Positions 51,501 to 57,500 are shown, counted from the first letter of the stretch. The stretch: 58,009 nt of DNA from Planctomycetota bacterium (GCA_026981825.1 JALSID010000227.1:1-58009), one strand, 5' to 3'. Translations and numbers: made by a program. Notes: generated from the letters alone by a model not told the origin.

Positions 51501-54500
51501 GGGTAGGCTATGGCGATCTCGTCACCGGGCGTGGCCGGATCGAAGTCCCCCGCCAGCGGCGTACCACCGGGAGCTCCGAACTCGAACGGCAATTCGTTCG
51601 GCATGCGGTCACCGCCCAGATCCAACCGCCACAGGCCGGTGACTCGATCGTAGGTGCCGAGGTCGTCGTCGCCGTCACCATCCCAGTCGCCGATCACCGG
51701 GATCAGCCGCTGCCCGGTGCCAAAGGCATAGATCGGATCGTCGGGCTGCAGGTTGCCGTTCTCATCGAGCTGGAACTCACCGGTCTCGGGGTTGAACACG
51801 CCGATCTCGGTGGCACCATCGCCGTCCCAGTCGCCGGTGATGCCCATCCAGCCCGCTGCGCCGTAGAAGACCCTCGCATCGCCGGGACGGTCGTCAACCC
51901 GATTGCCGTTCGTGTCCAGCACCCATCCACCGGCACGTCGGACGCCAACGGGCGTCGTGGTAGTCAACCGTGGAGCAGCCCGGTCGACGACGATCGTCAG
52001 TGTCTGCGTCGACTGATTACCGGCCAGGTCCGTGACTCGCAGTTGGATATCGACCTCGCACGTGGAGAACTCGGGGCACAGGTCGAACAGCGGCTCGATG
52101 AAGAACGTGCCGTCGGCTGCCGTCACCACTCCGGCAGTGCCGTCATCGAAGTCGCCGATCGGATCGAGCTGCCCGTCGGCATCCAGGATCGGCAGCAACT
52201 CACCCGTACGCAGGTCCTGGATGCGGGTGATGTCGATCTCGACCGCCATGTTCTCGGTCGTGCCCGGGAACACGTCGGTCGCGATGCCGCGCAGCAGCGG
52301 CCGCGGCTGGTTCGTCTTGCTGTCGAGCTGCACGCCCGTGTCACTGGACTCGTCCAGCTCGAACGCTCGGATCACAGGGTCGTCCAAATCGACGGCGAAG
52401 GTCAGAACCTGCTCGGCCACAGGATTGCCGGCCAGATCGGTCAGGCCCTGGTTCGAGTGGATAATGAGGCGGTAGCGGTCGATGCGCAGCTCACCGCCAG
52501 ACAGCTCTCCCTGGGTCGGATCGCCAGAGCGCGGGTCGAGCACATTCAACGTCAGATAGCCAGGCTCGATGCCTGCCACGGACACGACGCGGATCCGCAC
52601 CTCGTTGCCGTCGTTGAAGATGTCGCCGTCCTGGTTCAGGTCTTCGGGCCCACCCGCTGCGATAATCTCGATCGTGGCCGGAAGCTCAGCGTTTTGGAAC
52701 GATCGGATCGCCTCCTGGCTCAAGTCACGGCCGAAGATGCGGAGCTCGTCAATGTAGCCGTCGAACGTCGGATAGACCCCCTCACGCCCGCCGACGATCA
52801 ACGGCTCATCGGTATCGGAGAGCCGCAGCGCGAGCTGGCCTTCGCGGTCGAGGTCGCCGTTGATGTAGATCCGCCAGGTACCGGGTTCATCCGTGGGCAA
52901 TGGCTGGCGATCGGGGTTGAAGGTGATCGTCAGTTGATACCACTCGTTTTGACTCAATGGCGTAGCGGACCGGATCTTCTGCGTGTCCTCACCCCCACTC
53001 AGGGCATGCGGCCGCATCTCGGTGACGGCTCCCGAGCCGTTCTGGCCCGGCGCCAGTTCGGCACGCACCAGGGTCGAGGCCACTGGATGCGAGTTCACGA
53101 GGTCGCGCACCTCCAGGGCAGTGGTCTCACCCGGATTGCGGAGCGTGATGGAGATCAACGCCTCACCACCTGTCAGAGGCTGAAGCGGCATGGGACGGAC
53201 GCGACCAAAGCCGGTGGGGTTCTCGGGCGCCAGAGCCGCGGTGATGATGCCGTTGGCCGGGCTCGTGGGGGCATTCCAGGCAGCGATCACCTGGGCGGCC
53301 GTGCTGATCGGCCGACCGGTCTCGTCGGTCGCCAGGTAGACGGTGAAGTGATCACCGCTGCGCACGATCCGCAGGGGCGAATTCGTCCCCTCGGCCACAA
53401 ACTGGATCCTGTAGTTGTTCCCTTCGATACCGGGCGTCACTGCGGTGAAGCGGATGTCGTTGTCGTCACCCGGGAAGGCGGTGGTCAACTGAGCCGCCTC
53501 CGTCGTCACGCTGAGCGACGGCGTTGGGTTGGGCGTGGTGGGAACAACGTACTGGATCCGGATCGAATTACCCGCGGCACCACGCTGCTGGGCGGTGAAG
53601 ACCAGATCGTTGTCCTGACCTTCGAGGTTCGTCTGCAACGTGGCGGCCCGGTGCCGGCCCACCGGGAAGACCTCGAACACCACGAAGTCACGATTGCCCC
53701 CTAACCGATCCGGATGACGCGGATCGTTCTCCAGATACAGCACCCAGCCACCGTCGAAGGTGCCGTCCTTGTGCTTGGCAAGGATGGGACGAATGTTGGG
53801 GTCGGGCCGCTGAGGCCGTGTGCCGAAGTCGCGCGGGTTGATCGTAACCTGGAGCGTGAACGATCCATCCAGCCGCTGCAGGTGGGTGGCGCCCAGCGGC
53901 ACGACAGCCCCGGTACCATCGTTGCCCGGAGCAAGCTCGGCAGTCACGACCGTGCCCGCCACGGCGTTGATCGCATCACGCACCGCCGCAGCCGTGTTCT
54001 GCGCCGGATCCAGGTTACCGTCCGCGTCGGTGGCCAGAAGCACCGTTACGCTGCTGCCATCCACCTGCACGCTGAGGGGGTTGTTCGGCGTACCAGGATC
54101 GCGGTACTCAATCGTGACATCGGCCCCCGCAGGACCGGGATCCACCGCGGTGAAGAGCAGATCGTTGTTTTCGCCGGGGATCCGCGCCCACAGTCTGGCC
54201 GGACCTGCCGCCAGATCCAGACTGCCGGTCGGGTCGTCTTCCACGGTGATGTATGCCTTGCCGCCGTCCAGGAATACGGGCGGCATCGGCCGCACCGGGT
54301 CAGAACCGTCCTCTCCCGGAGGCAAGGAGACCTCGATAAGTGCCGACGCGGCAGGATCGGCCTGCAGGGCGGCGAGCACGTCCGCAGCCGTGGACAGCAC
54401 CTGGCCGTTCGCGTCTGTTTCCAGGGTGACAACGATTGCCGAGCCGTTCACCGCAACGCTCAGCGGTGCCGGATGCGTATCGGAGAGTCGGTACTCCACG

Positions 54501-57500
54501 GAGATCTGGTTCCCCGCAGGCCCCGGTTCGACGGCGCGGAAGACCAGGTCGTCGTTGGCCAAGGGCAGGTCCGTAACGGCCGAGGCTTCCTGTTCGACCC
54601 GATTGTCGAACGGGCCGCGGATGAAGACGCTCTCCAGCGATTCGGCCACCGGGTTCCCGGCCAGCCGGACGCCGCTGTTCAGGACCCGGAACGCATCGCC
54701 GACGGCCGAGGCATCGTTGCCGTAGAGCGAGAGGTCCGGCACGTCGATCGGCGGGAAATCACCCGGCTGGAACCGCAGCGGGAAGTCACCCGGCTCGAGG
54801 TCGAACTGCAGGTACGCTCGCAGGTCGTTCTCGAGCAGCAGCATCGTCTCGGGCTGGCCCGTCGTGTCCGTGTTCGGAATGTTGACCAGGAACACGGCGC
54901 TGTCGGCAAAGGTCTCCAGATCATTGCCCACAGCTTGAGTCCAAGCTAGGTGGGCCACGCCGTTGTACGCAGCCAGACCGATGTATTCGAGGTACTGGTT
55001 GAGACCGTTCACACCGGAAGTCGGAGCGACGGACAGATCGTCCGAGATCTGAACCTCCGGCTCCCACGTTGTCCCCCCGTCCACGCTGAAGCTCATGAAC
55101 ACGTTCACGCCGGTGTTGGACGGGTCATTGCGGGTATCGTACCAGATCGCCACCACGGCCCCCGTCGCCTGGTCAACGTCCAGGGTGCCGTTGAACTGGC
55201 TGGCATCGTTCGGATCCTGGCTGTGGACCTGCACCGGTTCCGACCAGGTGAGGCCACCGTCATCTGAGTACTGGACGAACACGTCCGTGTCCGTGGCCCG
55301 GTTGGCCCCCACGTTGTGCCAGAGCATGTAGAGGCGCCCGGTGTTCGGGCCGCCGCTGCGGTCCACATCGATGGTGATCATCGGCGCCACGTCACGGACG
55401 CTCTGCGCCGGCAGGTCCTGGTTGAAGGACATCTGCGTCACGGCCGCAAGTCGGTCGACGCCGAAGTTCAGCCCGCCGGCCAGGCCGTTTGGATCCACGT
55501 CCACGTAGATCGGCTTGTCGCGGAAGTCGGTAGAGGCGGCCGAGGTCGCCTGGATCCAGGTCACGTACAGCTCGCCGTTCGGGCCCACGGCCACGTCGGA
55601 AAGCTGAACCACGCCGTTCGACAGCGGGAATGGCGAGACGTCTTGCACCGGCACCGGTGGCACGAAGTTCATGGGCAGAGGACCGTTCTCGTCGGCCACC
55701 GGGCTACCGCTGACAACGATGTCCGCCACATCGTCCACGCCATCCTCATTCGTGTCGGCGAACCGTGTCCACGAGATGTACAGGTTGTCCTGCAGCGGAT
55801 TCTCGGCATCGGGCCCGATGTCAATGAACCACTTGTCGTGGAAAACGCCTGAGGTTGGCGCGTCAAACACCACAGGTTCGATTTCGAACGTCTGGCCCCC
55901 GTCCGTGCTCCGGCCCACCACGACCACGCTGCCGCCGAGCGAGGTCTCGATCCCGTAAGCGATGTACACGTTGCCGTAGCGGTCGAACTCGACAGCGGGA
56001 TCGAACCGGGTGTTGGCCGTGATGCCATCGACGTTAATGTCGATCGGGGTCCGGCCCCAGGTCAGACCTCCATCGAAGCTGTAGAACACATCCATGGTGC
56101 TGGTGCCAAGCCGGTGCGTGAACGCAACCAGGTTCTGGGGGTTGGTGGGATTAACCGCGACCTGCACTTCGCTCTGACCGAAGCTCGGATCGTTGCTGAC
56201 GTTCACGTCCGGACCGCCGACCGGGGTAACCGGTCCCGTAACGTCAGGCGCCTGGCCGGACACGAACGGGATCCGGATCTGCCGGAGGTTGTCCGGGATC
56301 TCGACCCGTCCCGCCTCGGGCGGAGCACTATCGATGCTGATGGTGGTCACCGCGGGCAGCGAGAGATTACCGCTGCGATCCTGGACGCGAACGCGGATCT
56401 GGCGGCTATCGGTGTCGGTGAGCGGGAACCGCGCCTGAACCAGGGCCTCCGCCAGGATCAGGTTCGTGCCGGGTAGCAGCACGGGGTTACCATCCACGTC
56501 GCGCAGGATTCGCGTGAAACCAACGCCGTCATCGAAGAGGCCGTCCCCGTCCGTGTCCAACTCCACCCGCAGCCCTTCAACATCGTTGGAATCGTCGGTC
56601 ACCAGTACGCGGAACAGCGGACGCCCGTGCCTGGTCAGGATGGGCTCAAAGGCATCCTGTTCGCCGGTGTCGCTTGAGGGGGCAACGGTGAACCGCTGGA
56701 CGAGCGGCGGCAGAATGTCCTGCAAGTCGTAGGCACCGATGTCGAAGAACGGGTCGGTACCAACACCGAGGTTGGGCGTATTCGGATCGTCGATGCGGTC
56801 CAAGCCATCGTGATCGATGGTGGAGAAGTCACCCGGCCGCGGATCATGGGTGACGACCCGTTCGGCCGCAAAGGTCGGCTCGGGCACCGTGCGCTCTGGA
56901 TTGCGGAAAGCTGAGACCAGCAACACCGCACCACCCGTGGAACGGTCGATCGCCTGGCGCTCGGTCTCGAGCCGGTCCGCGGCGTTCGACAGAGCACGAT
57001 CGATCGCCGCCGATCCCCTCATGATTCGGAGATCGCTTGTGGGGTCGACGAACCGCGGATCGCCATAGACCGGGTTGTTGTTTTGACCGGGCGGCAGGTT
57101 CGTGTCCACGGTGTTGTTCCAGAACAGGTTGAAACCGGCCACAGTGAGGGGGGCCGAAGAGGAATCGCCCTGGAGCCCGATGATGGTCGAGTTCGCGATG
57201 ATGTTGTTCATCACCGTCGGGCCCGCACCGTCGGTGAGGCGGATCGCGATGTCATTGATTGAGAAGCTGTTGTTCACCACTCGGTGGTAGGGGATCGCCG
57301 GCGAGGGGGCAGCCAGGGCCTGATTGCCGATCAGATCGACGGCAACCGAATTCTGCAGGAAGACGTTGTTCCAGATGTCCACGCCCGGAACCAGAGCATC
57401 CATCGCGTTCGGATCGAAGCGGAACGGATCCGGAATCGAGACCGTGGCATTGACGCCACCTGCGCCGCGGATGCCCACGGGCTGCACCCGGACGCCGATC

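Follow-up and report, generated by a model that had tools for sequence, protein, structure and literature searches.

Giant RTX Protein with an Interrupted LamG Domain

The stretch of DNA analyzed here, referred to below as the window, comprises 58,009 nucleotides (nt) of a Planctomycetota bacterium (GCA_026981825.1, JALSID010000227.1:1-58009). Its minus strand carries a giant open reading frame (ORF) of 4157 amino acids (aa), the 5′ end of which lies beyond the window. In the encoded protein, a LamG domain is interrupted at three places by copies of a small module, and one of these copies is itself interrupted by a fourth. A Pfam search of the giant ORF found the Big_13 and Big_5 domains, RTX nonapeptides, BNR/sialidase-like and MAM-like pieces, and Laminin_G_3. 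The RTX nonapeptides are indeed C-terminal (HemolysinCabind, 112.8 bits, seven stretches near aa 3981–4016). The protein is presumably surface-associated and exported by a type I system, and its domain content would fit an adhesin. Giant type I-secreted RTX adhesins of the LapA or MpIBP kind resemble it: they too are very large and have Ig-like repeats, a ligand-binding region of lectin type, and RTX nonapeptides at the C-terminus. To our knowledge, no module insertions have been described in a LamG domain of such adhesins.

An initial annotation, made by a model from the sequence, had claimed four modules of ~110 aa in this region, the third of them split after PSLSVTT by a complete fourth copy and resuming at EALISITL. 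All four were found in the one ORF on the minus strand, each ~108 aa in length (m1–m4, Table 1). Their coordinates had been given correctly within a few bases, except that the limits of m1 and m2 were 1–10 nt off and out of frame. The mutual similarity of the copies is significant in all pairs: the Smith–Waterman scores are 107–187 against shuffle means of 30–35 (z = 12.8–23.5), and m3, when spliced from its two parts, aligns to m1 and m2 with z = 19–22. The matches of a profile built from the four copies are confined, over the whole 5.2-Mb assembly, to the giant gene. The same profile splits m3, matching with its positions 1–51 at 53495–53647 and with positions 50–110 at 52991–53164, around a full copy at 53165–53497.

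The level of protein identity among the window copies is about 38–43%. A comparison at the DNA level, proposed in the initial annotation, indicated 60–72% identity across a 68-nt motif region only. Given this protein identity and the limited DNA likeness, the window copies are old duplicates or separate acquisitions; a recent duplication was rejected on the same DNA evidence. The tree of the modules is poorly resolved (m1–m3 group weakly, and m4 is located elsewhere, apart from its host m3) and does not give the sequence of the duplications. On the minus strand, m4 is flanked by a direct repeat of 6 nt, GAGGCG (Glu-Ala), at the m4 start (53495–53500) and at the start of the resumed m3 (53159–53164); it may be due to chance.

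Table 1. Features of the giant ORF, with positions counted from the first letter of the window.
Feature	Coordinates	Strand	Details
Giant ORF	45536..58009	-	InhA/MAM-like region, BNR/sialidase-like region, LamG with modules, FG-GAP-like repeats, Big_13/Big_5 Ig domains, C-terminal RTX repeats
LamG segment A	54587..54727	-	aa ~1095-1141, ...ESVFIRGPFDNRVEQE, upstream of m1; colinear with the uninterrupted LamG of P0016 and P0028
Module m1	54260..54586	-	aa 1142-1250; profile 2-110, E 1e-49; AlphaFold2 pLDDT 97.7
LamG segment B	54200..54259	-	aa 1251-1270, KAYITVEDDPTGSLDLAAGP, between m1 and m2; contiguous with A and C in P0016 and P0028
Module m2	53876..54199	-	aa 1271-1378; profile 2-108, E 1.4e-46
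LamG segment C	53648..53875	-	aa 1379-1454, ...GSFTLQVTINPRD...FVVFEVFPVGRHR; hhalign to LamG_3 profile 97.3%, E 2.4e-11
Module m3, N-part, ends ...PSLSVTT	53501..53647	-	aa 1455-1503; profile 1-51, E 1e-19; nested-model pLDDT >93
Module m4, complete, within m3 hairpin turn	53165..53500	-	aa 1504-1615; profile 1-110, E 1.7e-48; nested-model pLDDT 96.8
Module m3, C-part, starts EALISITL...	52991..53164	-	aa 1616-1673; profile 50-110, E 2.4e-18; secondary-structure order completed in nested model
LamG segment D	52685..52990	-	aa 1674-1775; Pfam Laminin_G_3 53.7 bits; genome-search match 52706-53002; hhalign

LamG Domain as a Host of Insertions

The modules had been placed in LamG loops by the initial annotation, and this location was borne out: all three sites are empty in the homologues P0016 and P0028, and the m3/m4 site was also recovered by profile alignment through the junction. 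The Pfam match to Laminin_G_3 (PF13385; cut-off 27.6 bits) spans aa 1671–1768 and profile positions 62–150, which are the last two thirds of the profile; in the genome profile search, it scored 57.7 bits. For hhalign, a LamG_3 profile was built from 13 domains of related genomes, and the modules were removed in silico from the query. The module-free host aligned to it (with the probability and E-value given for segment C) starting at GSFTLQV, crossing the m3/m4 junction (FPVGRHR / EDTQKIRS), and reaching the domain end. A Pfam search with the module-free LamG did not extend the match beyond profile positions 64–150, and nothing was found for it by phmmer against the PDB or in a search of 5.8 billion proteins.

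P0016 (5619 aa) and P0028 (7482 aa) are metagenomic giant proteins with the module and a homologous LamG domain. The blocks FRGPFNN, ITV-D-P-G-LDL, G-FTL, RP-LAKH, GGWVL, LVF-VF, W--V-LTYNP, EWR-Y-NG, FDG-IDE, and ELP-TI are among those common to all three proteins. The LamG domains of P0016 and P0028 are continuous at each of the window insertion sites; P0016, for example, reads FFRGPFNNTVGATRPTITVSDSPTANLDLTGEFTLSLW. Their own modules are located elsewhere: those of P0028 lie upstream of the aligned block and also behind GGWVLAIEDV and YLNGQLDNFGSG, and those of P0016 form a tandem pair after EWRFH. Since the three proteins carry modules at different places of the LamG domain, one LamG lineage took up the module at five or six places. 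A first search with the region of aa 1060–1800 had found P0002 alone, a tandem-repeat variant. P0016 (aa ~403–880) and P0028 (aa ~3271–3803) also share with the window the downstream Ig-like segment ELP-TI...NDGNEV next to the LamG scaffold. The three proteins appear to belong to a single giant surface-protein family in which the LamG head serves as a display platform.

Fold of the Module

The structure of m1 was predicted by AlphaFold2 with a family alignment of 64 sequences; the predicted local distance difference test (pLDDT) was 97.7 and the predicted template modeling score (pTM) was 0.90. The model consists of strands 3–5 and 16–19, a short helix 24–28 over the G-x-x-G-N motif, strands 30–35, 44–48, and 51–56, helices 68–77 and 79–84, and strands 85–88 and 102–106. 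The break of m3, after PSLSVTT and before EALISITL, aligns to the two-residue turn between strands 44–48 and 51–56. The nested pair (aa 1455–1673) was modelled by AlphaFold2 from an alignment of 34 natural nested homologues (pLDDT 96.8, pTM 0.86, no residues below 70). In this model, the full order of strands and helices occurs twice, and the inner copy begins and ends between the two hairpin strands of the outer one. The split of the third copy described in the initial annotation is thus seen in two ways, as complementary halves of the profile and as a nested structural model. Two paired strands enclose the inner copy, so the termini of the module must be close to each other.

Foldseek comparisons with BFVD gave five significant matches, all of them to uncharacterised proteins of tailed phages, with TM-scores of up to 0.80. 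In the PDB, sheath chains occupy eight of the top 11 ranks for the nested pair, each of them non-significant; for the sheath structure 3hxl, the single module gives E 3.9 and TMq 0.37, and the nested pair gives E 0.55 and probability 0.54. The conserved positions of the module are mostly Gly, Ala, Thr, and hydrophobic residues, and no Cys-, His-, or Ser-based catalytic pattern was found among them. An enzyme was therefore rejected as a reading of the module, there being no conserved catalytic residues. An Ig-like adhesin repeat was rejected as well, since no Ig family matched and the fold contains helices.

Self-Nesting across the Family

The suggestion that the module is able to insert into itself extends well beyond the window: self-insertion recurs across the family, to a depth of up to 5. 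Separate models of the N-half and C-half were run on 151 carriers. The order of the halves is perfectly balanced, in the manner of brackets, in 107 of them: 57 are tandem only, 40 are two deep, six are three deep, three are four deep, and one is five deep. Of the 106 carriers that have four or more halves divided equally between N and C, 105 are balanced, compared with a shuffle mean of 30.6 and a maximum of 46 in 1000 trials.

The break points cluster at three loops of the module. The commonest break follows strand 51–56, at positions 59–63; the second loop covers positions 36–43, with breaks near 39–40; and the third is the hairpin turn 49–51, used in the window, P0079, and P0067. Six proteins of 500–1100 aa (P0051, P0027, P0070, P0041, P0044, and P0076) consist almost wholly of 4–5, possibly up to eight, nested copies, with all breaks at 59–63.

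These data bear on whether m3 is a nested copy at all or whether its pieces are the remnants left on either side of m4 by the decay of two separate tandem copies. Repeat proteins often hold partial repeats, and with a larger profile the C-part of m3 is weak (33.8 bits). Against this, the pieces are exactly complementary in the profile, the spliced m3 aligns to m1 and m2, both pieces have a pLDDT above 93 with a complete order of secondary structure, the same N-full-C layout occurs in 36 natural homologues, and the half-module order is balanced almost without exception. Remnants are accordingly very improbable; m4 lies inside m3.

Domain insertion is already known, as are accessory domains of sheaths and flagellar proteins. 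A literature search for recurrent or deep natural self-nesting of domains found no relevant paper. The regular deep nesting appears to be undescribed, as do this family, which has no name, and its host range.

Distribution of the Family

A search of the four-copy profile against 1.84 billion cluster representatives revealed 3766 representative proteins at E ≤ 1e-3, of which 1682 remained at E ≤ 1e-10. The module has a patchy distribution and was found in five of the 201 genomes of the phylum to which the window belongs. No Pfam or NCBIfam model reaches its threshold on the module, and searches of Pfam, PHROGs, and PDB sequences with the four window copies alone gave sub-threshold matches only.

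The hosts were surveyed in a sample of 104 carriers of up to 787 aa. Pfam found Flagellin_N in seven of them and FlgE in six. With PHROGs, 39 carriers matched phrog_8757 (virion structural protein, E down to 7.7e-31) and 11 matched tail-sheath families; others matched major tail, major head, baseplate, or fibre proteins. The four window copies themselves did not match phrog_8757 at E ≤ 1. The profile survey proposed in the initial annotation thus shows the module in phage sheaths, virion proteins, FlgL, FlgE, and giant surface proteins. A shorter variant of ~90 aa is present in P0002, P0004, and P0006, which match mainly profile positions 2–97 with the motif NDLTFTA...YN-VTVEYV...KKLTITV..G.TTA; these giant proteins contain from 8 to more than 20 tandem copies, without nesting.

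Relation to Phage Tail Sheaths

Contractile sheaths carry protruding accessory domains after the N-terminal strand. The resemblance to such domains noted in the initial annotation proved largely correct and goes beyond a shared motif: the module is present in three P2-like sheaths at 38–49% identity, while the Pfam sheath family PF17481 stays below threshold and no significant fold match to solved sheaths was obtained. A tblastn search with one family member against 50,697 phage records matched four of them. Two are annotated as tail sheaths, one in Vibrio phage Valp1 (48.5% identity) and the other in Aliivibrio phage H905 (43.6%). The third is a protein of Pseudomonas phage ZRG1 (37.8%), which is encoded directly upstream of the tube gene and is taken to be the tail sheath from the gene order. 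In these three sheaths, two annotated and one assigned in this way, the matches cover the full length of the module (E 2e-7 to 3e-8). The fourth record, BK063672.1 (Methanosarcinales virus vir515, a tailed virus), extends the family to viruses of archaea: a hypothetical protein (4941–5939) encoded immediately behind the major tail protein carries the module, which is 53% identical to a copy from a bacterium or phage.

In the translated sheaths of Valp1 and H905, the module occupies aa ~40–150, where it follows the N-terminal strand (GLVGTAP...) and precedes the conserved E-x-FPL-x-P core; by coordinates, the ZRG1 match is at about the same place. Pfam found Phage_sheath_1 and Phage_sheath_1C in both proteins and, in Valp1, also Phage_sheath_domII at aa 42–149 (E 6e-4, 20.6 bits). 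Among 511 phage records with a Valp1-like sheath, 12 cover at least 80% of it and the rest match from residue ~152, which makes the module an optional addition to the sheath. The accessory domain of these P2-like sheaths and the window module are thus alike in belonging to one sequence family over the whole module; in the phages, the domain is inserted after the N-terminal strand and is lacking in most related sheaths. The difference is in the host, which in the window is the LamG domain of a giant RTX protein with four copies, one of them nested, instead of a sheath with the insertion between N-terminal strand and core.

PF17481 (Phage_sheath_domII, gathering cut-off 31.4 bits) was matched by 13 of 64 modules at E ≤ 1, the best value being 0.0013, and no other Pfam family was matched by more than two modules. 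In one whole carrier protein, PF17481 reached E 4.6e-5; it was absent from 61 related genomes. Weak matches of the modules also include PHROG sheath families and three PDB sheath chains. PF17481, an XkdK/Lin1278/DSY3957-type beta-sandwich, is similar to the module in the motif T-A-x3-G-x2-G-N-x-I/L-x-V and in weak full-length profile matches; it differs in that the scores are below the cut-off, the Foldseek values are E ≥ 0.09 and TM ≤ 0.37, and the module has two or three helices. By the Pfam criterion, the module is not a member of PF17481; its relation to sheath domain II is probably one of distant homology.

Relation to Flagellar Proteins

The likeness to flagellins noted in the initial annotation is also supported, with a caveat. 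In FlgL, FlgE, and one flagellin-like protein, the module is located between the helical domains at the two termini, but the hosts are mostly FlgL and FlgE and not flagellin proper, and Foldseek gave no significant match to flagellin. According to NCBIfam, P0019 and eight other proteins exceed the TIGR02550 (FlgL) cut-off, P0038 is FlgE, and P0108 is flagellin-like; the Flagellin_N carriers are mostly FlgL. This placement holds for family members only, the window modules not being between flagellar terminal helical domains. None of the solved domains of flagellar filaments or hooks in the PDB matched the module model in Foldseek.

Two published cases are close to these observations. In the Geovibrio thiophilus flagellin, a loop of D4 contains a duplicate of that domain, D5 (Fields et al. 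2024, PMC11532411). This is the one published precedent for self-insertion of a duplicated outer domain, and it concerns a different outer domain; unlike in flagellin, the nesting of the module is recurrent, uses three different loops, and reaches a depth of up to 5. A beta-grasp domain is common to FliD, FlgL, FlgK, and Mu-like phage tail proteins (Burroughs et al. 2007, PMC1949818), which is likewise a small domain shared by flagellar axial or cap proteins and phage tails. No Flagellin_IN, FliD, or FlgK chain was seen among the module matches, where the Pfam results comprised the 25 most-hit families and no direct comparison with the beta-grasp domain was made.

Possible Origin and Role of the Modules

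Taken together, the results probably reflect a self-contained plug-in domain, which fills three LamG loops and m3 and whose family is shared with sheaths, virion proteins, FlgL, and FlgE. The idea of a phage- or flagellum-related module recruited into a giant surface protein, put forward in the initial annotation, is supported by this range of hosts; the term adhesin used there would follow from domain content. The unit would be an alpha/beta domain of ~108 residues with its ends close together, so that it could be spliced into a surface loop or beta-turn without breaking the host. Three loops of one LamG (concanavalin-like) domain each received one copy, and the third copy accepted the fourth in its hairpin turn. 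The lectin-like LamG head would then display a cluster of four modules on the giant RTX protein. The same family provides the accessory domain, presumably outward-facing, of some P2-like sheaths, of other virion proteins, of FlgL and FlgE, and of one flagellin-like protein. As the ends emerge together and three loops accept inserts, the module can apparently enter exposed turns of sheath proteins, FlgL, FlgE, LamG, and itself.

Several points weigh against this picture. The N-terminal LamG segments, before m1 and between m1 and m2, are non-significant by themselves against the LamG profile, and their assignment relies on the two homologues. The adjacency of the termini is suggested by the topology of the model, not by coordinates, and the predicted exposure of the module and its loops at the surface is likewise deduced from topology. 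Foldseek searches of the PDB found no significant match for the single module or the nested pair (best E 1.4 and 0.094, respectively, TM ≤ 0.37). Every PF17481 score of the modules is below the cut-off, that of m1 being 16.8 bits in the whole protein and 13.7 bits alone. A single-sequence hhalign comparison with the phiC2 (XkdK-type) sheath aligned only the 17-residue T-A-x3-G-x2-G-N motif (E 0.16); the relatives listed for this type of sheath are only 90–100% / ≥93% identical, so that the comparison amounts to one sheath sequence. Finally, the conserved set NNDL / G-x-x-G-N / TD-x-x-G could form a binding site.

This last point leads to the strongest alternative, namely that the module binds a specific ligand, for example a glycan. 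LamG with its four modules would then be a multivalent lectin head, and on tails and flagella the modules would mediate adhesion to cell surfaces or polymers. The host has a fold of lectin type, all carriers are extracellular and surface-exposed assemblies, and polar motifs (NNDL, G-x-x-G-N, and TD-x-x-G) are conserved. But Gly, Ala, and hydrophobic residues predominate in the conserved columns, the four window copies, at 38–43% identity, differ at most surface positions, and no similarity to known carbohydrate-binding families was found. We consider specific binding possible but doubtful. Given that no catalytic pattern was detected and that all carriers are external assemblies, the module is read here as a probable non-catalytic exposed decoration; it would lend its carriers bulk and reach, perhaps with weak, multivalent binding in addition, and would not act as an enzyme.

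Another question is how the copies spread. An in-frame mobile cassette moved by an active mechanism at the DNA level, instead of rare random duplication or recombination, would account for independent insertions in three homologous proteins, where at least five or six different loops of LamG are involved, for insertions in three loops of the module and in unrelated hosts, and for the patchy distribution among genomes of the phylum. The GAGGCG repeat at both edges of m4 is the sole direct hint of such a mechanism. However, one 6-nt repeat is weak evidence and could be due to chance or to codon-level selection for Glu-Ala. The window copies are old, with branches of about 1.2–1.7 substitutions per site to their nearest neighbours, and no signature of a transposase, intein, intron, or homing endonuclease was seen in or beside the modules. 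Such a cassette is improbable for these reasons. We are only slightly less reserved about a broader conception, still unlikely, in which the family is a natural recursive-insertion fold across phage tails, flagellar hooks and junctions, and giant surface proteins, and in which the LamG insertions may reflect a dedicated in-frame cassette mechanism and not chance.

It is hardly credible that the resemblance to sheath and flagellar proteins is coincidental and the module just another adhesin repeat: the similarity to the canonical sheath domain II does stay sub-threshold in Pfam and Foldseek, but the module matches three phage sheath proteins over its full length, lies between Flagellin_N and Flagellin_C and within FlgE, and occurs in the 39 sampled carriers that match a phage virion PHROG.

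With the plug-in domain as the preferred reading, one small domain links contractile phage tails, through their accessory domains, with the hook and junction proteins of flagella, with phage virion proteins, and with giant surface proteins of bacteria. The strict bracket-like nesting and the entry into many loops of one host fold offer a natural model for the growth of proteins by insertion. Because the model is very confident, the ends are apparently adjacent, and three loops take inserts, the module is a candidate scaffold for loop-display engineering. It is also an annotation gap worth closing with a family model, as it is present in thousands of protein clusters and is represented in neither Pfam nor NCBIfam. 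In the giant gene, the four-domain LamG head accounts for about 1.6 kb.

Other Features of the Window

The segment 3′ of the LamG domain (ATIEIIAAGG...DLAGNPV...FAVDLDDP) could be a complete Ig-like domain by itself. A sigma-54 activator encoded at 31621–33375 on the minus strand points to a planctomycete as the source of the window; its sole full-length relatives (residues ~35–583, 46–47% identity) were found in metagenome-assembled genomes of Planctomycetales and Pirellulales.

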